Origin: a virus
IMG/VR virus record: IMGVR_UViG_3300030419_005136
Coordinates: 1-39,492 of that record
Direction: 5' to 3' (one strand)
DNA length: 39,492 bases
Shown here one piece after another: positions 3,143 through 39,492 of this stretch; position 1 is the first letter of the stretch; every line of letters starts with the position of its first letter. The position numbers and the translations under genes were made by a program. The notes beneath the pieces were generated by a model, which did no database searches, was not told the DNA's origin, and was given only the letters and a program-made list of their open reading frames with translations.

Positions 3143-3541
3143 CTAATTGCGCAGCCAGGTGTCGGTGGTCCAGAACTCTCGCCACCAGATCAGCTCGCCG
3201 CGAATGTCGGTCGTTTGCCCACCCCGGTACTGCATCGGGTTGTGCTGGGGGCTAAAGCCGTGCCCCATCAGCGCCTCGCGCAGTGCTTGGCGCTGGGCTT
3301 TGAACTCGCTGCGCTTGCACACCAGCCAAATGCCGTAGGTCAGGCGCACTTCCTGCACTGGGCGCGTGGTCTGGGCATCGCCTTTGGCGGAATCCTCCGC
3401 AAAATAGGCCAGCGCGGCGGGGGTTTGGGCTTCGAAGTTGTCGATGGGGTCGGCAAACCACGCTTCTTGTACGGTGGCCATGCCTGGGCATTTGTCGCGC
3501 AAACGCGCCAGCAGGTCGTCGATAATGTCCGGGTCGGTCAT
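3143..3541 (-). CDS. tail terminator protein (gpU position)
   Basis: A 132-aa ORF whose size and order (after Z-like, before major tail) match lambda U. Its start forms an ATGA-type overlap with the upstream gene. Confidence 0.6.
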   Translation of the reverse strand: MTDPDIIDDLLARLRDKCPGMATVQEAWFADPIDNFEAQTPAALAYFAEDSAKGDAQTTRPVQEVRLTYGIWLVCKRSEFKAQRQALREALMGHGFSPQHNPMQYRGGQTTDIRGELIWWREFWTTDTWLRN

Positions 3542-6992: not shown

Positions 6993-8487
6993 TCTCTTTA
7001 CTCCCGTAATGGTCGTGGTAGGGGTCTGAGCTGAACACCAGCCCTTTTTCGCGGTTCTCTTTAATCTCCGCTTCACGGCTCTTTTTCAGCTCTTGGGGGT
7101 TACGGCCACGGGCGCGGGCTACTTCGGCCTCATCGGCAAAGCCTGCGGCTACCAACTCTTCCCATGCGCGCGCTTCGTGCTGCGGGTTAATCCATGGCAT
7201 TACCGGACCTAGGTAAAACGCGTTGTAGAGCGTGCGTTCGTCCAGATCCGGCGGCAGGGCAATATCACCGTTCAATACAGCCATGCTTAATGCGCTGCGG
7301 TAGACGCGACGGCACCAACCGGCGATAAACTCATCCTGTAGCAGTTCATAGCCAAGCTGGGCTTCCACCAGCTCTTGGCGCTGTGCGCTGTAGGTGCCGT
7401 CGTAATCCCGCGACCACGTAGACGCCCCGCCCCGCGTACCGGCGGCAACGGCTTTGATCATCGCGCCCCGGAACCCTTCGACCAGGGCGTTAGGGCGGTT
7501 CGATTCGATCATGCCCACGTCTTCACCGGGCAACAGGCCGTCGAACGTCATTCCCGGCGCGATGGGTATTTGCCGGGAACCTGGGGGCAGGTTGCTATTG
7601 CTGCTGTTGTTGCCCGCCTGAGTGGGGTCGGTGAATGTGGCCGGGTCGCCTTTCTTGATATACATCGTCATCGCTGCCGCAATGCGGGCCGCTACGCGCT
7701 CTGACTCTTCGTAATCCTTTAGATCGGCTAGCCGGGTAATCACCGAGTGCAAAATGGTGATACCCCGGCTCTGCTGTAGGCGCTTGCGGTGGGCGAGGTG
7801 AATCATTCGCTCCGCTTCGACGCGCTTGGTATTCAACAGCCAGCCGCGCATGTCGCCGGGGTGGCTTTTGTAAATGTGGTAGGCCCGCACGCGCCGCCAT
7901 TCGTTGCGCTCGATCCCGGCAAAGATGCCCCGCTTTGGGTCGTCTGCATCTAGTGGAAGGTAATCCGCTTCTAGCAGCTCTAACGCGTAGGGCGTGGCCG
8001 TTAGGTACTGATAGCTAGGGATACGCCCACGCAGCTCTTGGGCTAAAACCTCACCATCACGCAGCCAGCTACGGCAGACCAAGCGCTCCATTTGCGGGCG
8101 GGTTAGCTCGCCGGTGGTTTCCGGGTGCAGCGACCACTCGGCCCACCACGTTTTAATTTGCGCGGCCAACTCGTTCAGGCGGTTGCCCGAACGGTCTAAC
8201 GGTATCGGCTCAATGCCGATGCCATCCGCACCCACAACGCGCTCTTCCAGACGGTCCAGAATACCCGTGACTAAATCATGGTTTTCATCCAGATAGCGGG
8301 CCTGCTCACGCAGTGAGCGCCCGGCCAGCTGAACCGCCATGTCCGCGCTTTTGGCTTCGCCCTTGGCCTTGTGCAATCGGCTAGGGGCGGCAGCTTCATA
8401 GGCGTAGATCATTTGCCGGGCGGCTAAGCGCTGAGCCACGCGACCGGGGGCGAACGGCTCTAGGGCTTTGTCGATCCAGTTTTTCAT
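6916..8487 (-). CDS. portal protein (lambda gpB type)
   Basis: A 523-aa ORF between the gpW-like gene and the protease. ATGA overlap with the gpW-like gene. The N-terminus MKNWIDKALEPFAPGRVAQRLAARQ is typical of lambda-type portals. Confidence 0.8.
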   Translation of the reverse strand: MKNWIDKALEPFAPGRVAQRLAARQMIYAYEAAAPSRLHKAKGEAKSADMAVQLAGRSLREQARYLDENHDLVTGILDRLEERVVGADGIGIEPIPLDRSGNRLNELAAQIKTWWAEWSLHPETTGELTRPQMERLVCRSWLRDGEVLAQELRGRIPSYQYLTATPYALELLEADYLPLDADDPKRGIFAGIERNEWRRVRAYHIYKSHPGDMRGWLLNTKRVEAERMIHLAHRKRLQQSRGITILHSVITRLADLKDYEESERVAARIAAAMTMYIKKGDPATFTDPTQAGNNSSNSNLPPGSRQIPIAPGMTFDGLLPGEDVGMIESNRPNALVEGFRGAMIKAVAAGTRGGASTWSRDYDGTYSAQRQELVEAQLGYELLQDEFIAGWCRRVYRSALSMAVLNGDIALPPDLDERTLYNAFYLGPVMPWINPQHEARAWEELVAAGFADEAEVARARGRNPQELKKSREAEIKENREKGLVFSSDPYHDHYGSKENGSPNAPPQGAARRANREPVIGTES

Positions 8488-8693: not shown

Positions 8694-10663
8694 AACCAGC
8701 TGCCTCCTTGAGTTTGCAGCCAGCCGCCACCCGCTGCCGGGGCTTGTGCCTGGGCGGGGGCGGGTGGCGGTGTTTTATCCGGTGGCGGGGTGGCCATGAC
8801 CGGCTGTTGGTTGGGGTCAAAGCCAAAGCGCTGCATCGACACGTAGAGCGCCGCCAAGGCGTACACCAAGCAATCAAGCGCTTCGTTTCGGCGCCCGCCG
8901 GAATCCCATAGATATTTGCGCTGGCCTTTCACCACACGGGGTAGCTTCACCTCGGCGGTGAGCTGCTTTAGCTCGTCCTCGTCACACAACTCGTCGTTAG
9001 CGGGAAAGTGAATACAGCCCTCGACCGGCACGCCGGGTTGTGGCTGGATTTTCAGACGGTTATAAATCAGCTCTTTGGCGTTATTGGTGCCTACCTCAGT
9101 GAGGTAAACGCCTCTATGCTTCTTGCGCGGAAAGTTAGCAATGGGCTTGCCGTAGTCGTTGGCCCCCCTCACGGGCACCACCCACATCAGGCCGTGCTTT
9201 TTCGACTGGCTGTAAACCTCGTCGGTGTAGCTGCCGCCCGAGTCCCAACCCCAGCGAATGACGCTCATCACGCCGCCATCTTCGCGGGTGTACGTGCGGT
9301 GCAGGCGCTCGCCCACTTTTTTCAGCAGCTCCGCGCCTGCCGGGTCGCCGTAGAGTATCCAGCGATCCACCAGCCACATTTCTTGGCCAGCGCCCACCGC
9401 CCATACGCGGCCCTCGTAACGGTCGTCTTGGGTGTCGATGCCGCCAAACAGCCCCACGGCGCGGTTGGGCACCTGGGCGTAAACCTCGCGCCTGCCGTAG
9501 AGCAATTCCCAGTCCAGCTTTTCGCCGTACTCGTCTTCCCACGTTTCGCCCAACGTCGTATTAACAAACGTCTTGAGCTTGGTGGCGTCGCCTTTGGCGT
9601 CGAGGAAGTCGTAAACGATTTGCGACCAGGTGGTGAGCGGGCTGTAGGCGGTCCAGATATGAAATGACACGGTGCGCGGGGTGGGTATCGGCTGGTCGTC
9701 TTTATCGAAAAAGTCGATGCCGTCCCGCGTCCAAATACCGGTTTTCTCACAGACGTAGCGGGCCTGGGCGATGCTGTGCGTACGGTTTTCGTCATGCAGC
9801 TCATGTTGACGGATCACACAGCCGTTATGCTCACACAGGTAGAACGCGCTTTCCGCGTCCCCCTTGTCCCACTTGAACCCGTAGGGCTCGTCTTTGCCTC
9901 CCCACTTCAACACCTGCTCTTCACCGCAATGTGGGCAAGGCACGTTGCAGCGCAGTAGGTGGGGCGACTCCTCAGCGGCAAGGGTTATCTGACACGACCC
10001 GGCCAGCTTGGGCGTCGAGCCGCGCACCGACTTGGGAAACGTCGCGCCTTCAAGGCGCTTGTCGCCCAACGTGGTAGGCGTACCTTCGCGCTCGATGTCG
10101 CTATCAAAACCAGATAGCTCGTCGTAAAAAACGCCATCGGCGCTTATCTCGCGGTAGTTGCGAGCCGCCTTACCACCGTGCATAAACAGCTGCTTGCCGT
10201 TGGCGAAGCGCTTGGCGGCGGTGGTGTTGTCCGTGTGTTTCTTGCCGTGCCAGGGTGCCAGCGCCAGCACCACCGGAATGTCACGGATCATGGTTTTAAC
10301 GTGGGTTTTGCTGAACTTGTCCCGGTCGTCGTCGGTGGGCGAGAACGTCAGACAGTTACGTTTCTTATGCTCCAGCAGATACCCAATCGCGGCCAACATC
10401 ATCTTGGTGTAACCAAGGCGGGCCGACTTGACGATATTGACCTTGCGGATCTCGTCGTTACCCATCGCGTTCAGAATGGCGACCTGAAACGGCAGGGTTT
10501 CCCACCGGCCTTCGTGGTAGCTCGATTCCGACGACAGGTAAAAGTGTTCGTTGGCCCATTCCACGGTGGTCATGGGTGGCGGGCGGTGTAAGGCCGCCAA
10601 ACCAAGGCGCACCGCCTTGGCCAGCTCTTCTAGCTGCTCAGTTGTTGGCGGCGATAAATTCAT
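8690..10663 (-). CDS. terL: terminase large subunit (lambda gpA family)
   Basis: 657 aa. The motif KSARLGYTK matches the lambda gpA P-loop KSARVGYSK. It follows the small subunit with an overlap. Confidence 0.85.
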   Translation of the reverse strand: MNLSPPTTEQLEELAKAVRLGLAALHRPPPMTTVEWANEHFYLSSESSYHEGRWETLPFQVAILNAMGNDEIRKVNIVKSARLGYTKMMLAAIGYLLEHKKRNCLTFSPTDDDRDKFSKTHVKTMIRDIPVVLALAPWHGKKHTDNTTAAKRFANGKQLFMHGGKAARNYREISADGVFYDELSGFDSDIEREGTPTTLGDKRLEGATFPKSVRGSTPKLAGSCQITLAAEESPHLLRCNVPCPHCGEEQVLKWGGKDEPYGFKWDKGDAESAFYLCEHNGCVIRQHELHDENRTHSIAQARYVCEKTGIWTRDGIDFFDKDDQPIPTPRTVSFHIWTAYSPLTTWSQIVYDFLDAKGDATKLKTFVNTTLGETWEDEYGEKLDWELLYGRREVYAQVPNRAVGLFGGIDTQDDRYEGRVWAVGAGQEMWLVDRWILYGDPAGAELLKKVGERLHRTYTREDGGVMSVIRWGWDSGGSYTDEVYSQSKKHGLMWVVPVRGANDYGKPIANFPRKKHRGVYLTEVGTNNAKELIYNRLKIQPQPGVPVEGCIHFPANDELCDEDELKQLTAEVKLPRVVKGQRKYLWDSGGRRNEALDCLVYALAALYVSMQRFGFDPNQQPVMATPPPDKTPPPAPAQAQAPAAGGGWLQTQGGSWL

Positions 10664-14188: not shown

Positions 14189-14224
14189 GCGTTATTGCGT
14201 TATATCACGCTAGCGTTATAGCGC
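14189..14224. repeat. variant copy of the dispersed GCGT/ACGC-box 30-mer, just upstream of int
   Basis: gcgttattgcgttatatcacgctagcgttatagcgc shares the aacgctagcg core and the GCGT/ACGC boxes with the other copies. Confidence 0.5.
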
Positions 14225-14814: not shown

Positions 14815-14871
14815 TGCATGCCCTCCTACTGTCGGTTCTGAATAGCGCGCCAACGCTCATTGCCATTTGCT

Positions 14872-14901
14872 GCGTTATAGCGTGCTAGCGTTATTTCACG
14901 C
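14872..14901 (-). repeat. dispersed 30-bp GCGT/ACGC-box repeat, copy downstream of Q
   Basis: gcgttatagcgtgctagcgttatttcacgc. Its reverse complement matches the copies at 19628 and 20988 at nearly every position. Confidence 0.7.
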
Positions 14902-15048
14902 TTACCACTCGATGCGCCCCAAAGCGGGCGATAACGCTTGTTCTTGCTGCCTTCTTGGTAGTGCTGGCAGGCACCACCATAGAAAACGTCTTAGGCTTCC
15001 TGCCTTCCAAAACGGTCACGCGGAATACACGGTTAACCGCTTTGGAAG

Positions 15049-19141: not shown

Positions 19142-19653
19142 AAATTATGGCGACCGACCTACCACTAAGCCACTGGCAGCGCATTGCCGAACAAAACGGC
19201 ATTCAGCGCAGAACGTTTCTCTATCGCCTGAAAACCATGGACGCGAAAAAAGCCGCCACCAAGCCGCTCAAAAAAGGTGGCATAAAGCCCAGCGCCCAAA
19301 GCAAGCGCCAAAAAAGCCTAGCCGCCGGGCTAGATGAATGCGCCCTAAGCCGCTACCGCCGCGAACACCCCGAAAGCCAGCTAAGCGACGAAGCCGCCCT
19401 AGCCTTTCTGCAAGCGCGCAAAGCCAAACTGCAAAACACCCTACGCGAACGCGCCCTTGCAGCAGGGCTAAGCCCCCAGCTGGTGTATCACCGCATTAGC
19501 CGCAACTGGCCGCTAGATAAAGCACTCAACACCCCGCCCATGCCCACCAGCCACGCGGCCCGCATCGGCGGCAAAGCCCGCGCCCAGCAAAAGCGCGAAC
19601 GCCGCCAGAAGCGGCTTCAGCAAGCAGCGTTAAAAAACGCTAGCACGCAATAA
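19138..19653 (+). CDS. basic hypothetical protein with two HTH-like repeats
   Basis: ATGA overlap with the upstream gene. The stop codon lies inside the 30-bp repeat at 19628-19657. Confidence 0.5.
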   Translation: MKIMATDLPLSHWQRIAEQNGIQRRTFLYRLKTMDAKKAATKPLKKGGIKPSAQSKRQKSLAAGLDECALSRYRREHPESQLSDEAALAFLQARKAKLQNTLRERALAAGLSPQLVYHRISRNWPLDKALNTPPMPTSHAARIGGKARAQQKRERRQKRLQQAALKNASTQ

Positions 19654-19657
19654 CGCA
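19628..19657 (+). repeat. dispersed 30-bp GCGT/ACGC-box repeat
   Basis: gcgttaaaaaacgctagcacgcaataacgc differs from the copy at 20988 at one position. Confidence 0.75.
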
Positions 19658-19684
19658 AACAAAACCGACACAGGAAGCCCCGCC

Positions 19685-20854
19685 ATGTGGTTTACCAACA
19701 TCACCGTTTACCAGCTCCACAACGCCCAAGCGATCGACAGCATAACGCTGCATGAAACGCTGCAAGCAGAAGCCGCCAAGCCGTTAGGCAATACCGACGC
19801 CAAGCGCCTTGGCTGGACACCCCCAGCAGGTCGCGCCAGCAACGCCTATTTACATGAAAGCCAAGGCCACCGCCTGCTCAGCATGCTCAAACAGCAACGC
19901 ATGCTGCCGCCCAAGGTCGTCAAAGCAGCGGTCGAGGAAAAGGTCGCGGAAGTCGAAGCCAACGAAGGCCGCAAGGTCACGCGCAAAGAAAAAACCGCCT
20001 TCAAAGAACAGATCACCGAGGAGCTGCTACCCCGCGCCTTTATCGATAGCGTCAAAATCGACGCATGGTGGGACGTAGAAAAAAACCGCATCATCATCAA
20101 CAGCGGCAGCCGCGCCCGCTGCGAAGAGCTGTTAGACCTGCTACGCGAAACCCTCGGCAGCCTCAAAGCCACCCCGCTCAGCACCCAAACGCTACCCATC
20201 CGCGCCATGACCACCTGGGTAGGCGACGCCAGTCACCGCCCCGCCAACCTCCAGCTCGGCGACAAAGCCACGCTCAAAGCCAAAGGCGACGACGGTAAAA
20301 TAGCCGCCACGCAAGTGGATCTCGACAGCGACGAAATACAGCAGCTACTCGAAAGCGGGCGCCAAGCCACCAACCTCGCCATTACCATCGACGAACGCGT
20401 GAGCGGCGTACTCACCGACAGCCTGCAGCTAAAAGGGCTGCGCTTTAGCGACAAGCTCATAGAGCAAGCCGACATGACCGAAACAAAGAGCGACGACGGC
20501 GACGACGCCATCGCCCGGCTGGAAAGCGACTTTTTCCTCATGGCCCACGCCCTAAGCGACACGCTGGATAGCCTCGTTCACATGCTGGGCGGTGAAACCG
20601 TACGTGAAGTAGCAGCAGAAAAAGGCACACGCCCCGACGACAGCCACCCCGGCGAACAGATCGGCGGCTTTGAAAAAGAAGAGCCGTTATTGAAAGAGGC
20701 CATCGAGCTAGTGAAGCGCTCCCCGCGTGACAAGCTCACGGTTTCCAAGCTCCAGCGTCATTTCAAAATTGGTTACAACCGCGCCGCATGGATGCAAGCC
20801 TACCTGATCCAAAACGGCCACATCCCCGACCACTACGCGCAGCTAACCCCATGA
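19685..20854 (+). CDS. rdgC: RdgC-like recombination-associated protein fused to an FtsK-gamma-like winged helix
   Basis: The N-terminus MWFTNITVYQL matches E. coli RdgC MLWFKNLMVYRL, with colinear RdgC blocks for about 300 aa. The C-terminus DKLTVSKLQRHFKIGYNRAAWMQAYLIQNGHI matches FtsK gamma [28 protein letters not shown]. Confidence 0.75.
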   Translation: MWFTNITVYQLHNAQAIDSITLHETLQAEAAKPLGNTDAKRLGWTPPAGRASNAYLHESQGHRLLSMLKQQRMLPPKVVKAAVEEKVAEVEANEGRKVTRKEKTAFKEQITEELLPRAFIDSVKIDAWWDVEKNRIIINSGSRARCEELLDLLRETLGSLKATPLSTQTLPIRAMTTWVGDASHRPANLQLGDKATLKAKGDDGKIAATQVDLDSDEIQQLLESGRQATNLAITIDERVSGVLTDSLQLKGLRFSDKLIEQADMTETKSDDGDDAIARLESDFFLMAHALSDTLDSLVHMLGGETVREVAAEKGTRPDDSHPGEQIGGFEKEEPLLKEAIELVKRSPRDKLTVSKLQRHFKIGYNRAAWMQAYLIQNGHIPDHYAQLTP

Positions 20855-21003
20855 ACACCGCCACCCTCTACCGCTGCTACAACCCCAAATGCAACCAGGG
20901 CAACACCCCCGGCTGGATGCTAGGCGCTAACCCCATTTGCCCCAAGTGCGGCCACTGGCTCACGCGCCAGCCCAACGATAACGCCAGCGTTAAAAAACGC
21001 TAG
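20851..21003 (+). CDS. 50-aa zinc-ribbon protein
   Basis: ATGA overlap with rdgC. Two CxxC pairs (CYNPKC ... CPKC). The stop codon (TAG) lies inside the 30-bp repeat. Confidence 0.45.
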   Translation: MNTATLYRCYNPKCNQGNTPGWMLGANPICPKCGHWLTRQPNDNASVKKR

Positions 21004-21017
21004 CACGCTATAACGCA
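20988..21017 (+). repeat. dispersed 30-bp GCGT/ACGC-box repeat
   Basis: gcgttaaaaaacgctagcacgctataacgc. Confidence 0.75.
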
Positions 21018-21036
21018 ACCAACAGGAACCGATGCC

Positions 21037-21168
21037 ATGCCCACCCCGCTAATGCTACTGATCGGGCTAGCCGCTGCCGCCGTCGCCTACGCCGGGTGGC
21101 AGTGCAAGCGCGAAATGGAACAGCTCGACCACAACGGCGACCCCATCGAGAAGGACGAACAGCCATGA
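21037..21168 (+). CDS. 43-aa single-TM peptide
   Basis: Below the ORF-track cutoff. The product is MPTPLMLLIGLAAAAVAYAGWQCKREMEQLDHNGDPIEKDEQP. Its stop overlaps the next ATG (ATGA). Confidence 0.35.
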   Translation: MPTPLMLLIGLAAAAVAYAGWQCKREMEQLDHNGDPIEKDEQP

Positions 21169-21410: not shown

Positions 21411-21991
21411 GAAATTCACCTATTTCAAAGCTGAAAGACCACCAGAGGCCAGCAGACAGCACAGCTCTAAGGGTTGGTTTTTTCAAAGGTGAAAACTTTG
21501 AAGTTGAGTTCACTCACTCTCGGCCCAAGAGACGGATAACGCTAGAAAACCCGCCGCCAAAGCCAAAGATGCCTGCAACCGCCAAAGACTACGCAGGAAT
21601 GCGCAACGGCAGAATGACCGCGTTTTTCTGGTTTAGAGAGTCACCCAGCAAAACCAGCTCAATATGGGTGGTGAAGTGCGACTGCGGCAGATATGAATTC
21701 AGAAAAAAAATAGGACGCTGGATAAAAGGTTATAAAGACGGCAACGACATGTGCGAGATATGCGAGAGAGAAAGAGAAATGCTCACCGGGCGCACATCAA
21801 AAGAAAACGAAGGAAAAAGGCGACTGCGTTTCATTGAAAAAATGCGTACCAAGGGTCTTCAAGACAATGATATAGAAAGGCTAATGCGCTTGGGAGTAGG
21901 TCTTGAAACGGCTAAAACCAAAAGCGAAATTCTAGACGCCATCGACGCTAAAGAAGCTAGCTTGAAAGAATACCAGGAGCGCCAGCATTGA
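21407..21991 (+). CDS. low-G+C hypothetical protein with CDCG...CEIC zinc motif
   Basis: 194 aa. The block YAGMRNGRMTAFFWFRE...IWVVKCDCGRYEFRKK...DMCEICERE resembles a widespread phage GRLTV...W.C.CDCG motif family. G+C is much lower than in the neighbours. Confidence 0.55.
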   Translation: MRNSPISKLKDHQRPADSTALRVGFFKGENFEVEFTHSRPKRRITLENPPPKPKMPATAKDYAGMRNGRMTAFFWFRESPSKTSSIWVVKCDCGRYEFRKKIGRWIKGYKDGNDMCEICEREREMLTGRTSKENEGKRRLRFIEKMRTKGLQDNDIERLMRLGVGLETAKTKSEILDAIDAKEASLKEYQERQH

Positions 21992-22257: not shown

Positions 22258-23040
22258 ATGAGCACCCCCACTATCACAGTGTCTGGCGTCACCCTTCCCT
22301 ATATTGAATATCAGCAGCAACCCGTCGTCACTTTCGCCATGATCGACGGCGTACATTCAAAATCCAAGGCGACGGCACGACGCTCATTTCAGCGAAACAA
22401 AAAGCATTTTATTGAGGGTGAAGACTTCTATGCCCTTGATTCTGAAAGGTTGGGACAAATTGTCACTACCTATCCCGACCTGTTTCCGGCGGCAACCACA
22501 CGCCTAACCCTCTTCACCGAAACCGGCTACCTTATGCTGGTCAAATCGTTTACCGACGACCTCGCATGGCAAGTACAGCGCCAGCTCGTCAAAAGCTATT
22601 TCCGCGTCAAAGGCGCGATGCAGCCCACCACCGCCGAGCCCATCCCCACGCCCATCGACCACCGCCAGCGCGAACAGCTCACCAACGCGGCTAACGCCGT
22701 GTTTCGCAATTTCCACGGCATGCGCCAAAGCGCCACCGGCTGGTTTTACAACGGCGTGCGCACCGACTACTGCCTAAAACGCATCGAAGATTTAAGCCAG
22801 GACGACTTCCCGGCGGTGATGGAACGCCTCCAAGCCCTACGCCCCAAGGTGCGCCAATACGAAGATTTTAGGTATGACTTTCAACAGTCGTTTTTAAAAG
22901 AGGTGGTAGGCGAAGGCCAGCCCTACACGGCATGGATCAGCAAGCTAGCCGGTGGCCAACACCACATCGGCCAACGCCCCAACTGGAAAGCGATAGCCAA
23001 GCAAGTGCTAATCCACAACGGCTTACTCACCAAACAGTAA
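22258..23040 (+). CDS. ORF6N/KilA-N domain protein (antirepressor-type DNA-binding protein)
   Basis: ATG 22258 with a GGAGA SD. The N-terminus QPVVTFAMIDGVHSKSKATARRSFQRNKKHFIEGEDFY...LFTETGYLMLVKSFTDDLAWQVQRQLVKSYF fits ORF6N. Confidence 0.6.
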   Translation: MSTPTITVSGVTLPYIEYQQQPVVTFAMIDGVHSKSKATARRSFQRNKKHFIEGEDFYALDSERLGQIVTTYPDLFPAATTRLTLFTETGYLMLVKSFTDDLAWQVQRQLVKSYFRVKGAMQPTTAEPIPTPIDHRQREQLTNAANAVFRNFHGMRQSATGWFYNGVRTDYCLKRIEDLSQDDFPAVMERLQALRPKVRQYEDFRYDFQQSFLKEVVGEGQPYTAWISKLAGGQHHIGQRPNWKAIAKQVLIHNGLLTKQ

Positions 23041-23063
23041 GCCCACCCGCGCCAGCCCACCCA

Positions 23064-23088
23064 AGCCCGCCACCGCGCGGGCTTTTTG
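23064..23088 (+). terminator. intrinsic terminator after the ORF6N gene
   Basis: AGCCCGC-caccgc-GCGGGCT followed by TTTTG. Confidence 0.7.
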
Positions 23089-23102
23089 CTGCCTGAACGC
23101 CT

Positions 23103-23225
23103 GCGTTATAAAACGCTAGCGTTTTAGCGTTTTATCTTGCACCCCTAGCAGCGCTTTTCTATACTAGCGTTATTGCGTGCTAGCGTTATTTAACGCTGTA
23201 ACGCCAGTGCGCAAAAACGCAACGT
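23103..23225. promoter_or_regulatory. array of GCGT/ACGC tetramer boxes (candidate partition site and par operator)
   Basis: The core reads GCGT-tatt-GCGT-gcta-GCGT-tattta-ACGC-tgta-ACGC-cagt-GCGC-aaaa-ACGC (23167-23220). Three more boxes lie at 23103-23130. The array ends 20 bp before parA. Confidence 0.55.
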
Positions 23226-23244: not shown

Positions 23245-23895
23245 ATGGGATACAAAATTGCCTTCGTGAGCCAAAAGGGCGGCGTCAGCAAAAGCACCCT
23301 AAGTCGAGCACTCGGCACCACCTATGCGGCGGCGGGCTGGAACGTCAAAATCGCCGACCTCGATATTAACCAGTCCACCTCGTTTACATGGCTGCAGCGC
23401 CGCCTCAAAAGCGGCGTAACGCCCGAGGTGGCGGTGGAAACCTTCGGCACGGTGGCCAGCGCCCTCAAAGTAGCTGACACCTACGACCTAATGATTTTCG
23501 ACGGTGCGCCCCACGCCACCAAAGCCACCGCCGAAGTGGCCCGGCTTGCGGATCTCGTCGTTCTGCCTACCGCGTTAAGCGTTGACGACCTTGAACCCAC
23601 CGTAAGGCTGGCCAACACACTCACCGGCCAAGAGGGCGTACCCATTGAGCGCATCGCCATCGCGCTGAGCAAAGTAGGCAAGAGCAAAACGCAGCTGCAG
23701 GATGCCCGCGCCTACCTCGCCCATACGCCCTATTTTGTACTCGATGGCCAAGTACCCGAGCGCGACGCGTTTGTATTAGCCCAAGATAAAGGGCTGTCGA
23801 TTGTTGAAACCCCCTTCAAAGGCCCGAAGGCCCAAGCGGATGAACTGATACAAAACATCATCAACCGCTTTGAATCACTCGTTCAGTCAGCGTGA
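23245..23895 (+). CDS. parA: ParA/ParF-type partition ATPase (small, type Ib)
   Basis: Deviant Walker A KGGVSKST in MGYKIAFVSQKGGVSKSTLSRALG. 216 aa, with no N-terminal HTH domain. Confidence 0.8.
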   Translation: MGYKIAFVSQKGGVSKSTLSRALGTTYAAAGWNVKIADLDINQSTSFTWLQRRLKSGVTPEVAVETFGTVASALKVADTYDLMIFDGAPHATKATAEVARLADLVVLPTALSVDDLEPTVRLANTLTGQEGVPIERIAIALSKVGKSKTQLQDARAYLAHTPYFVLDGQVPERDAFVLAQDKGLSIVETPFKGPKAQADELIQNIINRFESLVQSA

Positions 23896-23919
23896 AATAA
23901 CGCTAGAACGCTAACACGC
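23890..23919 (+). repeat. degenerate copy of the 30-bp GCGT/ACGC-box repeat between parA and parG
   Basis: gcgtgaaataacgctagaacgctaacacgc. Confidence 0.55.
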
Positions 23920-23932
23920 AGGAGTAAGCAGC

Positions 23933-24175
23933 ATGGCGAAACCGTCACTTAAACCCAGCAGCAAAGGCGCACCACCCACGGCAGCTACCCCCGGCCCGGT
24001 AGTGGGCAACAACACCAGCAAACCGGAAAGCGGCGAAAAGGTGCCGCTGAATTTCCGCGTTGATCCTGAAATGCGCCGGGAGTTTAAAGCGTTTGCCGTA
24101 GAGCATGACATGCAAATGGTGGACGTACTCAAGGAAGCCTGGGCAGCGTATAAGCGGGAAAAAGGGAAGGGCTAA
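23933..24175 (+). CDS. parG: ribbon-helix-helix ParG-like centromere-binding protein
   Basis: 80 aa with an AGGAG SD. It has a flexible basic N-terminus, then VPLNFRVDPEMRREFKAFAVEHDMQMVDVLKEAW (an RHH beta-strand plus helices). Confidence 0.6.
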   Translation: MAKPSLKPSSKGAPPTAATPGPVVGNNTSKPESGEKVPLNFRVDPEMRREFKAFAVEHDMQMVDVLKEAWAAYKREKGKG

Positions 24176-24178
24176 ACC

Positions 24179-24535
24179 ATGGCGATCAACGAAACTGCCG
24201 AGCTTGAACGGCTGATACCCAGCTATGAGCTGGCACTATGCACTATCGCTGGGCGGCTGAATGACAACAACAAATACGCCATGGAAGCGGTGCTGATCGG
24301 CTCGCACCCAAGCGGGAAGGGCGTAACCGCTGCCATCCGTTGCGATGCACGCTGGGGAACGGCCTACGCACTGCAGGAAGCACCCTACAGCACCTATCAA
24401 GACGCGCTAAGCGCTTTTGGCGTCATGCTAGACGACATTACCGCCCGCAACGAAGGCCGCGCAAAATGGAAGGATGAAGCGTGGTGGGAACAGCACCACG
24501 ACGACTTGAAAGCCCGCTATGGCTTTGAGCTATAG
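24179..24535 (+). CDS. hypothetical protein
   Basis: 118 aa, starting 3 nt after the parG stop. No recognised motif. Confidence 0.45.
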   Translation: MAINETAELERLIPSYELALCTIAGRLNDNNKYAMEAVLIGSHPSGKGVTAAIRCDARWGTAYALQEAPYSTYQDALSAFGVMLDDITARNEGRAKWKDEAWWEQHHDDLKARYGFEL

Positions 24536-25364: not shown

Positions 25365-25877
25365 CTATCGCAACGATTTAACCAGTGTCAGCTCATCGCT
25401 GGGCAAAGGCTTAAAACCGTATCGCTTATAAAAATCCACCGCATCAGGCAACGCGTTTATCATCAGGGCCACAGACCCCACTAAACGCGACTGATCGGCT
25501 GCAGTTTGCCAAGCAGCCAGTAGCAAACGGCAACCGACCCCCTTGCCTTTTAGTCGGCTATCGACGGCTAAACGCCCTAACGTGGTCACGGGAACGCTTC
25601 GGGGCATGTTCTTTTTTAACTTGCCCATCATTTTTTCGCGGTCCACTGCACCAGATGCAAGCGCAAAATATCCTAGCACTAGCTTTGTGCCTGGGGCGCA
25701 CACTACATAGACCGTAGTAGCACCACTTTGATGGTTGCCTAACGCTTCACTGGCTAAAAACTTATTTAGCGTGAACACGCCACAATCGAAGTGGCTTAGG
25801 TCGTGCTGAGGCGTTAAGAGCTCTGGGGCTGCGACGACGCCCAAATCGGTGTTTTGTTGAGAAGTTTCTGAAAGCAT
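25365..25877 (-). CDS. GNAT-family acetyltransferase toxin (TacT/AtaT/KacT-like)
   Basis: GGAGGA SD. The N-terminus has PELLTPQHDLSHFDCGVFTLNKFL and the acetyl-CoA loop RLAVDSRLKGKGVGCRLL. It pairs with an upstream RHH/DUF1778-like gene. Confidence 0.75.
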   Translation of the reverse strand: MLSETSQQNTDLGVVAAPELLTPQHDLSHFDCGVFTLNKFLASEALGNHQSGATTVYVVCAPGTKLVLGYFALASGAVDREKMMGKLKKNMPRSVPVTTLGRLAVDSRLKGKGVGCRLLLAAWQTAADQSRLVGSVALMINALPDAVDFYKRYGFKPLPSDELTLVKSLR

Positions 25878-26122
25878 GGGTCCTCCGATGCTGGCTGTTT
25901 AATAGCCTCTTCGAAGAACGCGTAGTCGGTTTCATTCAGCATGTAGAATCGTCGGTTCAGCAGTACCTCTTCGGCTTTTCGACATGCGGCTTCCACCACG
26001 AAACTGGTTCGATCTCCCCCCAGCTCCGCTACGGCTCTATCGATCAAGGCGCGTTTTTTAGGGTCAACACGCATATTGAGTGCCAGTGGCTTAGCCACTG
26101 CCTCAGCAGCTGTGCTTTTCAT
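25814..26122 (-). CDS. DUF1778/RHH antitoxin (TacA-like)
   Basis: LNMRVDPKKRALIDRAVAELGGDRTSFVVEAACRKAEEVLLNRRFYMLNETDYAFFEEAI. It overlaps the toxin start by 64 nt. Confidence 0.7.
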   Translation of the reverse strand: MKSTAAEAVAKPLALNMRVDPKKRALIDRAVAELGGDRTSFVVEAACRKAEEVLLNRRFYMLNETDYAFFEEAIKQPASEDPCFQKLLNKTPIWASSQPQSS

Positions 26123-26523: not shown

Positions 26524-27171
26524 ATGTACGTCAGGGGATACCTACGCGCCAGCACGGCAGAGCAGAACGCCCAGCGGGCACGCAGCACGCTAGAACACTT
26601 CGCCGCTGAACATCGCCGTGAGGTAGTGAGCTGGTATATCGAGAATGTGAGCGGCGCTAGCAGCCAGCGCCCGGAACTCAGGAGGCTTCTGGAAGACGCC
26701 AAGCAAGGTGATGTGCTACTGATCGAATCGGTAGACCGCCTTTCCCGCCTGGGGGCGGCAGAGTGGCGGCACCTGCGGGGGCAGATTGAGGCGCTAGGGT
26801 TACGGGTGGTGTCGCTGGACCTTCCCACTAGCTACGCAGCCATGGCCACGCCCAGCCAGGGCGAGGATTTTACCGCCCGCATGCTCGATGCGCTGAATAC
26901 CATGATGCTAGACGTACTCGCAGCGGTAGCCCGCAAAGACTACGACGACCGGCGAACGCGCCAGCGCCAGGGGATAGAGCAAGCAAAGAAGGAAGGCAAG
27001 TACCAGGGAAAGCGGCCCAACAAGGCACTACACCAGCGAATTGAAGCGCTATTGAACGCCCGCGATGGTGAAGGCAAACCGTTCACCACGGCGCGCATTT
27101 GCGAGCTAGCCGGGTGCGGTGAAACCACTGTGAAAAAGGTAAAGCGGGCTATGCGCGAAAAGGCACACTAA
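26524..27171 (+). CDS. serine recombinase (resolvase/invertase family)
   Basis: The catalytic N-terminus is MYVRGYLRASTAEQN. The block VLLIESVDRLSRL and a C-terminal HTH (ARICELAGCGETTVKKV) are present. Confidence 0.8.
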   Translation: MYVRGYLRASTAEQNAQRARSTLEHFAAEHRREVVSWYIENVSGASSQRPELRRLLEDAKQGDVLLIESVDRLSRLGAAEWRHLRGQIEALGLRVVSLDLPTSYAAMATPSQGEDFTARMLDALNTMMLDVLAAVARKDYDDRRTRQRQGIEQAKKEGKYQGKRPNKALHQRIEALLNARDGEGKPFTTARICELAGCGETTVKKVKRAMREKAH

Positions 27172-28389: not shown

Positions 28390-29355
28390 CTAGTAACGTC
28401 GCTGCCGGTCTAGCCACTCTTCATACGGCGGGTACTTGATGCGCACCAGCTTGTTCACCTCGGCATGGCTGGCACCGGGGTTATCGCGCACCACCTGGGC
28501 AAAGTAGGCGTTTGCCTCTTGGTTATAGCGGCGCTGCAGTTCTTTTTCATCGTTGGCGTCGGGTAGATCCTTCTTACCCCGGCGCTGCTTCTGCATCGCT
28601 CTGGGGCCGCTGCCTGCCATCGCTAGGCGGCTACGGGCCTGGGCGGCGTCGTACGCCTTGGGGTGCTGTTCGCGGTGCTTACGGCGGGCTTTCTTAATGC
28701 GGTTGCTGCACCAGTCGCGGAACTCCTTAAACTTCTGGTAGCCCACACGCCCCAGCGCCAGCAGAAAATCCGGGTTGAGTAGCTTCACAGCAGGCCGGGC
28801 GCGCTTAGTACCGTCGGCTTTCACCTCATGCTGCAAATGCACCGTAAACGCGCCAGCGAGCTTTAAGCGCCGGAAGGCGCGCCAAAAACGTTGGCTAGGC
28901 TCGGGGGCTTCCGGGGTGCTGCCGGGTGCCAGCAGGCCCGCCACGCGGGCAATTTCCGCACAGCTACGGTGTTTAAAACCACCATCCGCTAGTGGGGTGC
29001 CCACGCGCAAACTGGCGAACTCGGTAAACTGAATGATGGCAGAAAGCACCAGCGACTCAGCAGCGCGGGCCTCAGATCGGTTACAGCGGGGGTTGCCATC
29101 GGCGTTGGCCTTGCCGTTCAGGTTGGCCAGCGTGGGCAATAGGCCGGGGCTGGTGTAGTAGGCTTTGGCACCGTCTACCAGCGCTTGCAGTGTGGCGGGT
29201 AGCCGCCCCTTTTTAACGGGCTGGCAATAGCGCTCAAATTCCCCTTTCGCGGGGTTATGCCCGCACCGGTTACCGGTGCCCCACCACTTGCCGGGGTGTT
29301 CGTATGGCACGCGCCCCCACGTGAGGGGCTGCGCGTTCTCTGCTGCAGCATCCAT
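28390..29355 (-). CDS. repA: plasmid replication initiator, IncFII RepA-like
   Basis: 321 aa from ATG 29355. The central block ...SEARAAESLVLSAIIQFTEFASLRVGTPLADGGFKHRSCAEIARVAGL...RFWRAFRRLKLAGAFTV... and the basic C-terminus are colinear with IncFII RepA as I recall it. Confidence 0.5.
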   Translation of the reverse strand: MDAAAENAQPLTWGRVPYEHPGKWWGTGNRCGHNPAKGEFERYCQPVKKGRLPATLQALVDGAKAYYTSPGLLPTLANLNGKANADGNPRCNRSEARAAESLVLSAIIQFTEFASLRVGTPLADGGFKHRSCAEIARVAGLLAPGSTPEAPEPSQRFWRAFRRLKLAGAFTVHLQHEVKADGTKRARPAVKLLNPDFLLALGRVGYQKFKEFRDWCSNRIKKARRKHREQHPKAYDAAQARSRLAMAGSGPRAMQKQRRGKKDLPDANDEKELQRRYNQEANAYFAQVVRDNPGASHAEVNKLVRIKYPPYEEWLDRQRRY

Positions 29356-37700: not shown

Positions 37701-39492
37701 AGCGCGCTTTCAGAACCGTCGATCAAGCCTAGCCACAGGCTTTGGCCGGAATCATCAATACGGCGCAGGGTGTTATCCGCGACGGTTTCCCAGCTAAGGA
37801 AGCTGTTGGCGATGCGCTGGCTGGCGTCTTCTGAGGCGGTGGCGGTGTTTTCTGCTTCCCGCTGCGCTGCTTGAAACGACTCCTGCAGCATGCCCATGGC
37901 CTGCATGTACTGCACGGCATTGATGCGGCCCGTGGCCAGGGCCAAATTCAGCGTGCCCACGTCCTGCGCGTACTGCCGCGCGGCGCGGCGGTTGGGCTGA
38001 ATGCGGTCTAGCAGGTTTTCGTAGCTGTTGGCGAGGGTGGTGGTTTGTTTGGCGGCGTCACGGGATGCGGCGGCGGCGGTGTTGGTGGATGCACTGGCAG
38101 CATCCGCAGTGACTACTATGTCTTCAAGCGCCTGAGCACCTGCGCGGTCGGCGCTAGTGGCCTGCTCTCTCGCTTCTCGGTTTTTGCGTATAGCTGTTTG
38201 CAGCTCGACTTGACGAGCCCACAGGTCTGCCAACGCTTCTGTTTGTTGATCCACTGCACCAGACACACTATCTGCCATGCCTTGGTGTGAGTTTTCATAG
38301 AATGCTTGGCGAGCTTCCAGTTCTGTTAGCTGCGCCATGGCTTCTTGAGCCTGCAGCGAAACAGCCTCAAGAGAGTTAATTAGGTTGTCGTACGTGGCAT
38401 CCAGGGCAGCGGCAGAACCGTCACGTATAGCGGCGCTATTATCATCCAGTGCAATAGTTGCGTTTTTTGCTGCTGCATCGACAAAGCCAAGTTCTTCGCG
38501 GAAATAGAACAATGAGCCAACCGCTATCACAGCTGCGCCAGCTGGCCCACCCACTAACGTTAACGCCCCAGAAACACCACGGACTGAAGCGGCTAACGCG
38601 GTTTGGCTGGCGACCACAGTCGTACTAACGCCCGCCATGCGCGCCAGCGCCATTTGATAGGCGATAGACTGCTGGGTAGCCGCCAGTTTTGCCGCCGTAG
38701 CGGTGGCAAACGCGCCCGCGTAGCGGCCTGCCAGCAGTGCGGCAAGCACTTGAGCGCCATCGGTGAGGTGGCCAACCACCACCTCTGCTCCGCCAACCTC
38801 TTGGATAAACGCATTGACGTTTTGTAGCCCTGCCGTAATCGCAGGCACTAGCTCAGAAAGCAGTGTTTGGCTGACACCTTGCGCGGCAAACTTTAGGCGA
38901 TCGACTTCATCGTTATAGCTTGCCATGGCGTTGGCGGTGTCTTGACTGATCGTTAGGCCCAGCGCGTCAGCCTCCGCGCGCATGGCAGCAATGGCATCAG
39001 TGCCGCTGTTGACGATCTGCACCAGTTTCACGCCTTCACTATCCCAAAGCTGCTGTGCAAGGCGCACCCGCTCACTGCTGTTTTCCACGCCTTGCATGGC
39101 TTCCGCAATGCGTTCGAACTGGTCTTCTGGGGCCAGTTGGTTCAGCTCTTGGGCACTAAGGTTGAGGCGATCCAGCGCCGCAACCGCAACACCAGTGCCT
39201 GCAGCGGCTTCGGCAATGCGGCGGGTTTGGCGCTGCCATGCCGTCGTTAGCTGGTTGAACTCGACGCCAGAGAGGCTGGCGACGTAGTTGTACTGGCTCA
39301 GCGCTTCCGTGCTGGCACCAATCCGCAGGTTGGTTTTCTGTAGCTGGTCGCCCCAGTTGATCTGGTTTTGCAGCGAGTTAGCCGCAAACATGCCCGCAAT
39401 AGCACCGGCAATAGGCGCAGCGGCGCGGCGCAGCACGGCCAAACCTTGGCTAGTGGCGTTAACGTCTTGGTTAAACTGACGGCTACGGCGGG
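34733..39492 (-). CDS. tape measure protein, body and 3' end (5' end is at 223..1 across the circular junction; total 1627 aa)
   Basis: A long Ala/Gln-rich helical protein with a Gly-rich hydrophobic centre. The C-terminus GGVFTNSIVSSPTLFDMGLMGESGDEAIMPL is typical of lambda-like gpH. The track start at 39442 is a TTG inside the frame. Confidence 0.85.
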   Translation of the reverse strand, partial: RRSRQFNQDVNATSQGLAVLRRAAAPIAGAIAGMFAANSLQNQINWGDQLQKTNLRIGASTEALSQYNYVASLSGVEFNQLTTAWQRQTRRIAEAAAGTGVAVAALDRLNLSAQELNQLAPEDQFERIAEAMQGVENSSERVRLAQQLWDSEGVKLVQIVNSGTDAIAAMRAEADALGLTISQDTANAMASYNDEVDRLKFAAQGVSQTLLSELVPAITAGLQNVNAFIQEVGGAEVVVGHLTDGAQVLAALLAGRYAGAFATATAAKLAATQQSIAYQMALARMAGVSTTVVASQTALAASVRGVSGALTLVGGPAGAAVIAVGSLFYFREELGFVDAAAKNATIALDDNSAAIRDGSAAALDATYDNLINSLEAVSLQAQEAMAQLTELEARQAFYENSHQGMADSVSGAVDQQTEALADLWARQVELQTAIRKNREAREQATSADRAGAQALEDIVVTADAASASTNTAAAASRDAAKQTTTLANSYENLLDRIQPNRRAARQYAQDVGTLNLALATGRINAVQYMQAMGMLQESFQAAQREAENTATASEDASQRIANSFLSWETVADNTLRRIDDSGQSLWLGLIDGSESALDTVKRGFQQTLAEIAHMLTTQRLTFHVAGMMGLDTAGMPGGGGGGFNLSSLGSLYTGATNLPYIGDAISSAGSALGFGGSSAAAGGLYANALTGSAAAGGLYAGASTGAAVGGLYGNALTGAATTASGGFMSAASAAMPWLAGGALVDNVLGLGIVDGIVGGISGLFGGRKTAPKFELATVGQDVDPTRHGLFENYGEGVYSRGALGTVGFYDPNTARLEETFDGFDNAKAFLDGITALDNALVGAAANLDNGAEKTQAMASAAQAVRLNASDAAGIANQLATRTLAVVDVIDGDFSAALRGLGLDAEQITGRVVQAANAMQLLDSNSARLNLQFDASAEGALNAAAGLSDYVGGLDNIAAVNQAYYNAAFTETERLSNAQLDLYSSLSNVTDEVPTTVAGLRTLVEAQDLNTEAGGQLAYQLMQLAPALRETNAAVRQAIEQAYQSELGRAPDTAGLEYWFDRVASGSLTLDGALWNIANSAEAASVAAIGGADAMRERTQLELQLLRVQGNANALRDYELSQLAESNRPLQERIWAIEDERAAMQEAERAQQERIRALEQEARTMMSAGQNIRQFVESLQNTGGAGVSPETAYQNAEESFLAAISTIYTSDDSALVQDTISGITGIAQQYLNAAEAYGASGNIYQQAQALVEGSLDDLASRLGSDELEDIDPQLQAMVDQLKNVATNTGLAGPLAKQVPLAQTFAEFFGGSGNQNYMVRQIGALAEIEKAIRNLEFSSGGGSDIDTSPSQPAGKTLTRSQVTSLVDASDNFSFLKQTMRGDSSQRAFSRSLAGDFNSGSLAPSVARNNVDKLISAVGFDEANYLRLNPDIAEAIGRGEVYSGFQHFLLHGIDEGRKFAKGGVFTNSIVSSPTLFDMGLMGESGDEAIMPLTRHSNGSLGVRAELPPMPQFPLLGKSDVTQVMRDMQRTIEQQGKTIERLLNDSNTHLAAANNQRGAAATQQIAATKEGNKMLKKLEDDARLEAAKR
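39394..39492. repeat. second copy of the 99-bp terminal repeat
   Basis: Identical to bases 1-99. Confidence 0.9.

Follow-up and report, generated by a model that had tools for sequence, protein, structure and literature searches.

The closest described relatives of the locus analysed here are plasmid partition systems in which a small ribbon-helix-helix (RHH) protein acts on arrays of short DNA repeats. In the ParF-ParG system of plasmid TP228, ParG recognizes 20 ACTC boxes spaced at 8 bp in mixed orientation, with one dimer per box, and the operator doubles as the centromere (PMC3130281); this operator, OF, is an array lying downstream of the -10 element (PMC3130281, PMC3413123). The omega protein of pSM19035, an RHH-type ParB, occupies contiguous short non-palindromic repeats in mixed orientation at the copS, delta and omega promoters, where its sites are both operators and centromeres and at least four contiguous repeats are needed to activate ParA (PMC9499535). 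For the Halomonas plasmid pZM3H1, a PAR module (orf34/orf35) was earlier predicted to comprise a ParB-type protein and, as parS, "7-bp imperfect inverted repeats" (PMC3606827). Here we examine a locus of this kind in a phage genome of 39,492 nucleotides (IMG/VR record IMGVR_UViG_3300030419_005136; the whole of this stretch is called the window), in which boxes repeated every 8 bp precede a parA gene and a gene for an 80-aa predicted RHH protein. We consider it quite likely that the locus is the type Ib partition cassette of a temperate phage persisting as a plasmid prophage, with autoregulation, a centromere and dispersed sites.

[quoted passage not shown] The window locus has a small ParA without a helix-turn-helix (HTH) domain, an 80-aa protein encoded downstream of it and iterated repeats at the putative par promoter, in the following order.

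23063-23090, plus strand: terminator-like hairpin and T-run (hairpin 23063-23084, AAGCCCGC / GCGGGCTT with a 6-nt loop).
23095-23134, no strand: distal box array, lying 5' of the -35 hexamer and made up of five contiguous 8-bp units (R F R F F).
23137-23165, plus strand: promoter-like element of the par operon (-35 TTGCAC 23137-23142, 17-nt spacer, -10 TATACT 23160-23165).
23167-23222, no strand: proximal box array, seven slots (F F F R R r R; r, degenerate GCGC).
23245-23895, plus strand: parA, coding for a 216-aa deviant-Walker-A ATPase without an N-terminal HTH (type Ib).
23933-24175, plus strand: RHH gene (80 aa), starting 37 bp past the parA stop.
24179-24535, plus strand: orf118, starting 4 bp past the RHH stop.

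The two arrays occupy the interval between the stop of an ORF6N gene (23040) and the parA ATG (23245). Eleven exact GCGT (F) or ACGC (R) boxes share a single strict 8-bp register across the 128 bp from 23095 to 23222, in two blocks 32 bp apart: all six GCGT boxes (23103, 23119, 23127, 23167, 23175 and 23183) start at positions equal to 7 modulo 8, and all five ACGC boxes (23097, 23113, 23193, 23201 and 23217) at positions equal to 1. With the degenerate GCGC at 23209, the slots read RFRFF....FFFRR.R. The core string that the first-pass annotation gave for 23167-23220 is exact, and the three boxes that it placed at 23103-23130 are present as GCGT at 23103, 23119 and 23127; its list was sound as far as it went and overlooked the ACGC boxes at 23097 and 23113. 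The array is not a product of chance: boxes fill 11 of its 16 phased slots, whereas 60 simulations of the whole window with a third-order Markov model gave a maximum of 3-5 anywhere. It is also the densest stretch of GCGT/ACGC in the window (11 per 130 bp; mean 1.9), and a four-slot position weight matrix (PWM) scored the distal array at 47.7 bits and the proximal array at 47.8 bits, against a null maximum of 21. Tandem Repeats Finder reported only 2.2 copies of TAGCGTTT at the par array; mixed orientation hides the array from this program, and a phased box scan and the PWM were used for that reason.

Autocorrelation peaked at lags of 8, 16, 24 and 32, with lag 16 the highest (0.48; lag 8, 0.39; background, 0.26) because TAACGC and GCACGC units alternate. 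This 16-bp super-period is seen at 23095-23222 and in the arrays of the Vibrio phage-plasmid VPHZ6 (L004; relatives are designated by L numbers), with TAACGA and GCACGA alternating in Vibrio phages, and suggests a dimer of dimers as the binding unit. An array also stands at the position of the distal array in relatives. Constant helical phasing between the promoter-flanking arrays was sought and is not claimed, as the gap measured 32 or 40 bp in VPHZ6 and the window clade and 44 or 55 bp elsewhere.

The consensus of 32 aligned units is t-a-T-A-A-C-G-C-t-a. Because conservation reaches beyond the tetramer, the recognition unit appears to be w-TAACGC-w, a 6-bp TAACGC core with about two A/T-rich bases between cores; when centred on the A|C step, units are exactly 8 bp apart in both orientations. 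Of the proposal of tetramer boxes with 4-bp spacers, the 8-bp period and the mixed orientation thus stand, and the tetramer gives way to the longer unit. The comparison with TP228 on which that proposal leaned was accurate, ACTC boxes, 4-bp AT-rich spacers and an operator identical with the centromere all being described (PMC3130281).

The promoter-like element sits in the 32-bp gap between the arrays. Its hexamers are kept in relatives in which the spacer has diverged (L008, TTGCAC-17-TATACT; L009, TTGATC-17-TATACT; L020), and it is from this conservation that we infer the par promoter. The proximal array starts one base (A23166) past the -10 hexamer and ends 22 bp 5' of the parA ATG, with an AAGGGG ribosome-binding site between the two, and is the presumed operator and main centromere. 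Upstream, the hairpin at 23063-23090 is kept in L008, L009, L012-L015 and L020 and is predicted to close the ORF6N gene and to insulate the par promoter; it was identified from its inverted repeat and T-run and was not flagged by the terminator scan. A 14-bp tandem direct repeat (AGCCCACCCGCGCC / AGCCCACCCAAGCC, 23040-23067) overlaps the ORF6N stop, runs into the hairpin and is partly kept in relatives.

The parA call of the first-pass annotation, a 216-aa protein without an HTH domain, proved right. The product has a KGGVSKS motif from residue 11 and no N-terminal extension, and matches Pfam CbiA (4.8e-13), the ParA-like PHROG 164 (4.5e-34) and, under the curated cut-off, NCBIfam ParA_partition (7.7e-28). 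Its nearest solved structures are 5u1g, a 214-aa chain deposited as "ParA" (2.4e-7), and 4dzz, ParF of TP228 (7e-7). The pairing of parA with a small gene is kept in all relatives examined. The gene orf118 has no Pfam, PHROG or NCBIfam match and may belong to the operon as its third gene; in relatives the gene at this position varies in length (86-117 aa), so that the par operon may have a variable third gene.

The 80-aa protein has a basic disordered N-terminal tail (MAKPSLKPSSKGAPP...), a predicted ribbon V37-P-L-N-F-R-V-D44 and helices at residues 45-57 and 62-77. Its AlphaFold2 (AF2) model, a monomer of moderate confidence, consists of an extended segment and these two helices, with a predicted local distance difference test (pLDDT) score of 50-57 over residues 1-40, and shows an RHH fold behind a flexible tail. 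In agreement with the first-pass assignment to the RHH class, all top Foldseek matches of the model were RHH proteins (StnY, ParG 1p94 at rank 3, CdbA, CopG, Arc and AmrZ). A word-indexed protein search returned only close relatives with at least 62% identity, and a profile of 23 family sequences only SvtR (E 0.009). ParG was reached once the profile held 101 representatives (SvtR, 1.8e-4; ParG 1p94, 4.4e-4), and this alignment places the ribbon V-P-L-N-F-[R/K]-V-D over K-R-V-N-V-N-F-D, the ParG ribbon (PMC3413123). The comparison with ParG, Omega and Arc that had been suggested thus gave a remote ParG match by profile and Arc among the structural matches; omega reached only E 1.4, and Pfam ParG (PF09274) was not matched by the window protein and was touched by one of the 101 representatives (E 0.0015). 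The 80-aa protein is accordingly best described as a predicted remote homologue of ParG within the RHH superfamily, not a member of the ParG family, and is a candidate centromere-binding and repressor protein. Its N-terminal motif M-A-x-P...K-G-x-P-P is 86-94% conserved among the 101 representatives, as would be expected of a ParA-contacting tail. The family comprises 548 clusters at 50% identity and bears no family name; its members occur in phages and plasmids of Halomonas, Vibrio, Aeromonas, Edwardsiella, Yersinia pestis (pTP33), Erwinia, Pseudomonas and Xanthomonas. Matches to Agrobacterium plasmids were dropped, as no parA adjoins them and they are not the pTAR par locus.

With the exception of pTP33, all closely examined relatives, whether phage, plasmid or metagenomic, carry the parA-RHH pair together with evident 8-bp arrays, as follows.

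Halomonas-type phages, close and mid-distance, siphovirus-type elements (L008-L015, L020): TAACGC; modules at the same gene junctions.
Halomonas/Chromohalobacter contigs and pZM3H1 (L005, L007, L022/L026): TAACGC; four F, gap, four R, parA, four R, RHH gene.
Shewanella contig (L006): perfect tandems of TTAACGAA surrounding a TTGACA-17-TACAAT promoter, and also present between and after the genes.
Vibrio, Aliivibrio and Edwardsiella phage-plasmids, myovirus-type (L001-L004, L017, L019, L021/L027): TAACGA/GCACGA or TAAAGA.
Pseudomonas aeruginosa pPAC1.3b (L024): TTCGCTAA.
Xanthomonas pAG1 (L025): GCGTGCTT.

Most of these carriers share nothing with the window beyond parA and the RHH gene, and a DNA-level search of phage records gave only three weak Vibrio matches. 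The box changes with the ribbon. An NFRV ribbon goes with TAACGC in the window clade, L005, L022 and, in part, pAG1; NFK[VIR] goes with TAACGA/GCACGA in VPHZ6, PE002A, L006, L016, L018 and L021; NFKP goes with TAAAGA in H905, and DFNFKV with TAGCGA in pPAC1.3b. Arginine at ribbon position 6 is thus found with boxes ending in ACGC, and lysine with those ending in ACGA, AAGA or GCGA; in the alignment to the ParG ribbon this variable residue faces the DNA (PMC3413123). Because the arrays travel with parA and the RHH gene and the box changes with the ribbon, the RHH protein is the probable box binder, and this co-inheritance and covariation form the strongest computational argument for it. The Vibrio, Aliivibrio and Edwardsiella relatives have, immediately 3' of the RHH gene, a GC-rich hairpin and then ACCAATGGGA (L001, 3890-3975; L002, 3050-3140; L003, 3925-4025; L021, 920-1010). 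This motif matches exactly the sequence surrounding the parA start codon (ACCAATGGGATA) and may be a duplicated parA 5' end or a shared translation or regulatory signal.

The module of pZM3H1 is a true homologue of the window cassette, with a 214-aa ParA and an 80-aa protein whose ribbon reads VPCNFRV (57% identity over residues 26-78), the same TAACGC boxes and the layout array-gap-array-parA-array-RHH; its carrier is a mobilisable metal-resistance plasmid, not a phage. The RHH fold, the 8-bp register and the extra sites of this module are not described in the original report (PMC3606827). Likeness to TP228 lies in the small HTH-less ParA followed by an RHH protein of about 76-80 aa with a flexible N-terminal tail, in short boxes every 8 bp, direct and inverted, upstream of the operon with one block directly past the -10, and in the structural matches, ParF being among the two nearest solved structures to the window ParA and the ParG fold ranking third. 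The systems differ in the box (TAACGC with about 2 bp between cores; ACTC with 4-bp AT spacers), in the ribbon (VPLNFRVD, with no Pfam ParG match; KRVNVNFD in ParG) and in the setting, as the window has its promoter between two arrays, modules scattered over the genome and a phage as carrier, whereas TP228 is a Salmonella plasmid. The proposal of a ParF/ParG-type system of distinct specificity therefore holds for the type Ib ParA, the RHH fold and the specificity, which the covariation of box and ribbon among relatives supports, and does not extend to ParG at the sequence level.

Delta-omega of pSM19035 is matched in having arrays of 4-7 units at several loci, and the four-box module size fits the omega minimum. 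It differs in its 7-bp period (heptads WATCACW, against 8 bp and another sequence here), in the omega profile score given above and in residing on a Firmicute plasmid, the window being a proteobacterial phage. MetJ is likewise an RHH repressor that binds tandem 8-bp units with one dimer per unit, and its ACGT core resembles ACGC/ACGA (PMC3413123); its met-boxes are however palindromic and in direct tandems only, and it is a chromosomal metabolic repressor without a ParA partner. The window cassette is probably a type Ib RHH partition system of distinct specificity that works like ParFG and delta-omega.

In the model favoured here, each TAACGC core would receive the beta-ribbon (V-P-L-N-F-R-V-D) of an RHH dimer in its major groove, and dimers on adjacent 8-bp units would bind cooperatively and coat each array. 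Since the arrays bracket the -35 and -10 hexamers and the proximal one begins a single base past the -10, such coating would shut off parA-RHH transcription in a negative autoregulatory loop. The coated arrays would double as the centromere: through its conserved basic tail, the RHH protein would touch ParA-ATP dimers bound to the nucleoid and raise their ATPase activity, and replicated copies would be pulled apart. That the RHH protein binds the boxes and autoregulates its operon we regard as highly likely; that the cassette functions in the segregation of an episomal prophage is a reasonable expectation, held with somewhat less assurance.

The boxes are not confined to the par promoter. Seven modules of 4-7 units lie at six loci of the window, two flanking the par promoter and five elsewhere. 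Runs of at least four contiguous phased boxes number seven where 0.005 are expected, and the seven modules scored 42-51 bits with the four-slot PWM, the next-best site in the window reaching 10.8 bits; no degenerate modules were found in the structural half of the window (next-best score again 10.8 bits). The five further modules are the following.

14189-14220, no strand: integrase module, R F R R when read along the gene, lying 62 bp 5' of the integrase start (14126, minus strand); 51.0 bits.
14872-14903, no strand: post-Q module, F R R R in gene orientation, following the Q-like gene cluster; 42.5 bits.
19627-19658, no strand: rdgC module, F R R R, overlapping the orf171 stop and ending 26 bp before the rdgC ATG (19685); 45.5 bits.
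20979-21018, no strand: post-rdgC module, five boxes (R F R R R), ending 18 bp before an ATG at 21037; 46.4 bits.
23890-23921, no strand: parA-RHH intergenic module, F R R R, overlapping the parA stop and ending 11 bp before the RHH start; 42.3 bits.

Read toward the downstream gene, the dispersed modules are F-R-R-R or R-F-R-R(-R), and several overlap the stop codon of the preceding open reading frame (ORF). The integrase module, the top PWM score, has a fifth, degenerate box reaching 14228. The post-Q module overlaps the stop of a 53-aa ORF; 18 bp separate its end from TTG (14853), the first candidate start of the minus-strand orf107. The post-rdgC module follows the rdgC and zinc-ribbon genes. 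All five are kept in relatives: the integrase module upstream of int in the Halomonas qaidamensis plasmid (L020), the post-Q module in L012, L013 and L020, the rdgC module at the same junction in L008-L012, L014 and L015, the post-rdgC module in L008-L015 and L020, and the intergenic module in L003, L005, L006, L008-L014, L018, L020, L021 and L022. Because the same boxes occur at five other loci, the RHH protein is probably more than an autoregulator of the par operon.

More distant carriers also have arrays away from parA. In VPHZ6, arrays of TAACGA/GCACGA at 2492-2515, 3471-3502, 9565-9596, 14826-14849, 25615-25646 and 29100-29123 occupy gene junctions both in the structural (late) operon and in the early region: on either side of the capsid gene, ahead of the sheath gene, behind the tape-measure gene, behind the repressor gene and ahead of an exonuclease...integrase block. 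All are R relative to the downstream gene. A TAACGA array lies 44 bp upstream of int in pEI-2083-2, with another past the tape-measure gene, and in pZM3H1 (L026) TAACGC arrays at 21693-21732 (FFFRR) and 21968-21991 (FFR) lie upstream of a RelE/ParE-HTH toxin-antitoxin operon, which parallels the control of epsilon-zeta by omega.

The number and spread of these arrays bear on whether some factor other than the RHH protein binds them. A replication initiator acting on iterons at an origin, or one of the cI-like, ORF6N or HTH proteins encoded nearby, might be the binder, with parA and the RHH gene close by incidentally, and short repeats near maintenance genes can indeed be iterons. Iterons typically repeat every 17-22 bp, and seven arrays spread over 10 kb with an 8-bp period are unlike them. 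The arrays moreover follow parA and the RHH gene into backbones sharing no other gene, the box changes with the RHH ribbon, the ParA has no specific DNA-binding domain of its own, and the RepA/oriV of pZM3H1 is separate and has other repeats (PMC3606827). Period, dispersion and covariation led us to reject iterons or an origin, and a binder other than the RHH protein is very improbable.

The constant sense orientation of the modules and their ends 11-26 bp before start codons would also fit an action as RNA, with repeated UAACGC motifs or short GCGUU/AACGC hairpins in 5' leaders near ribosome-binding sites. Against this, the par-promoter arrays run in both orientations and lie partly upstream of the promoter, the possible stems measure just 5 bp, no Rfam match was found at E up to 1, and a mixed-orientation 8-bp register is a hallmark of RHH operators; we give an RNA role hardly any credence.

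As sites for the RHH protein, the five extra modules would tie partition to recombination and to other phage genes, either by making the protein a global regulator in the manner of omega or KorB or by serving as a dispersed centromere. The centromere sites of phage N15 are scattered round its genome, and Ravin and colleagues are said to have reported in 2008 a link between the N15 partition system and late gene expression. As a plasmid, this temperate phage is maintained by a system of the ParA family, with four separate inverted-repeat (IR) sites making up the centromere (PMC7205306). Its likeness to the window is confined to the dispersed layout, as N15 has a type Ia system with a large HTH-bearing SopA, a large HTH-type SopB and single palindromic sites on a linear genome with a protelomerase.

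On the N15 pattern, the four-box modules could be extra centromere sites only, with no effect on the expression of neighbouring genes. The separate sites of N15 are a precedent, modules of 4-5 boxes reach the four contiguous repeats at which omega-bound parS activates ParA (PMC9499535), and in VPHZ6 cognate arrays lie inside the structural operon, at capsid, sheath and tape-measure junctions. The modules also sit at intercistronic junctions of stop codons and ribosome-binding sites with no recognisable promoter beside them, a sigma-70 scan having called none at the int and post-Q modules, and for this reason a classical operator role there is only putative. A centromere would, however, need neither the strict polarity nor the 11-62 bp to the next start codon, and positions are kept before particular genes, before int in the Halomonas and Edwardsiella lineages and before the toxin-antitoxin operon in pZM3H1, much as in gene-specific control by omega. 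That the modules are nothing but centromere sites appears doubtful. Regulation of adjacent genes, beyond mere extra centromeres, is a plausible suggestion that falls short of an even chance. More tentative still is the broader proposal that the RHH protein is a genome-wide regulator whose polar junction modules couple segregation to the integrase or resolvase, to rdgC and to post-Q (late-side) genes. On this proposal its reach would extend to the structural operon in the Vibrio/Edwardsiella lineage. It might work inside operons as a roadblock or attenuator, in place of a classical operator at a promoter. A simple ribbon code, in which Arg goes with C and Lys with A at box position 6, would make specificity, and hence incompatibility groups, more diverse.

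The RdgC homologue (19685-20854), which has box modules on both sides, carries a C-terminal FtsK-gamma-like winged-helix domain (PHROG 13700 at residues 334-385), and its orthologues in L008 and L009 match both Pfam RdgC and FtsK_gamma. FtsK-gamma activates Xer recombination in bacteria, and a link between this domain and a co-regulated tyrosine recombinase is conceivable.

Whether the cassette serves segregation depends on the lifestyle of its carrier. As the first-pass annotation had it, the carrier is a phage; it is of the Halomonas type. The window encodes small and large terminase, portal, head protease/capsid, tail proteins, a 1569-aa tape measure, an endolysin, a cI-like repressor, a Q-like region and an integrase. 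The same 99 bases stand at its two ends (1-99 and 39394-39492) and no host flanks are present, and because of this terminal overlap we regard the window, of about 39.4 kb, as a complete circular, or terminally redundant, phage genome. The tape-measure ORF extends up to the overlap junction. A syntenic relative, NZ_CP080628.1 (L020), whose DNA is about 80% identical over the early region and whose RHH protein is 94% identical, is recorded in the complete genome of Halomonas qaidamensis XH36 as a circular plasmid of 45.9 kb. A 38.6-kb Vibrio parahaemolyticus plasmid, of the same length as the VPHZ6-like contig L017, has an RHH match of 50.9% identity (49.1% for VPHZ6), and pTP33 of Y. pestis and the Erwinia, Edwardsiella and Aeromonas elements are plasmid records as well. 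Because this close syntenic relative and others were deposited as plasmids, the window element is likely a phage-plasmid with a plasmid-prophage lifestyle. The full set of morphogenesis and lysis genes shares the molecule with parA-RHH and with a putative GNAT/RHH toxin-antitoxin pair, a 170-aa GNAT acetyltransferase (PHROG 1758; 25365-26122, minus strand) overlapping an upstream 102-aa ORF; the pair looks like a TacT/TacA-type system and would be a second plasmid-style maintenance function.

Several observations weigh against the partition cassette of a plasmid prophage, besides the missing promoters at the dispersed modules. All of the evidence is computational. In pTP33 (L023) the repeats upstream of parA are of a TCAC type, with spacing not resolved, and the Arg/Lys covariation comes from few independent lineages, with L016 and pAG1 mixing box types. 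The AF2 model of the 80-aa protein has a mean pLDDT of 65 and the ribbon strand itself is not formed; direct matches to hidden Markov models (Pfam RHH_10, 6e-4; NCBIfam PrgO, 5e-4) were both under cut-off, and a single-sequence search of the Protein Data Bank gave nothing significant (E at least 0.85). A sigma-70 consensus scan called no promoter at the par locus, because the -35 hexamer TTGCAC matches the consensus at only three of six positions. Finally, the window encodes a 422-aa tyrosine integrase and no replication initiator was recognised among its genes, so that an integrated lifestyle is also possible.

These last two points would suit a cassette devoted mainly to transcriptional control, in which the RHH protein regulates its own operon together with int, rdgC and the post-Q gene, the phage integrates, and ParA has a role other than segregation, for example in positioning or maintaining the excised or replicating form. 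The full-length integrase has a box module directly upstream, and the fixed F-R-R-R polarity toward the downstream gene suggests a role linked to transcription. Set against this are the plasmid status of the close and distant phage relatives, deposited as circular plasmids, and the ability of ParG and omega to combine regulation with partition, which makes the two roles compatible. Tyrosine recombinases on plasmids commonly resolve multimers, and the integrase possibly acts in this way. The same pair with its arrays is, furthermore, the sole par-like locus of a bona fide plasmid, pZM3H1 (PMC3606827). Control of transcription without segregation is thus unlikely, and a partition cassette remains the preferred reading.

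Two further features of the window lie outside the cassette. A serine DNA invertase (26524-27171; Hin/Gin-like, PHROG 125) adjoins the tail-fibre end of the structural module and may form part of a host-range switching inversion system. A single 737-aa ORF (4863-7076, minus strand) matches both head-maturation protease and major-head families (PHROG 133 and 4523) and is a predicted protease-capsid fusion gene.

A system of this kind is already known, and the dispersed modules are its most interesting part. Phage-plasmids are increasingly seen as vehicles of gene flow, and their small type Ib systems are mostly annotated as "ParA + hypothetical protein"; the present analysis gives proteins of about 80 aa, which form a widespread and uncharacterised family, a predicted function and DNA target. 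The series of ribbons and boxes found in nature offers material for studying RHH recognition and plasmid incompatibility. If the partition protein does control the integrase and other phage genes, the window element would be a compact example of partition wired to the control of lysogeny, and the arrays would give those who annotate metagenomic phage genomes a useful rule for recognising centromeres and operators.

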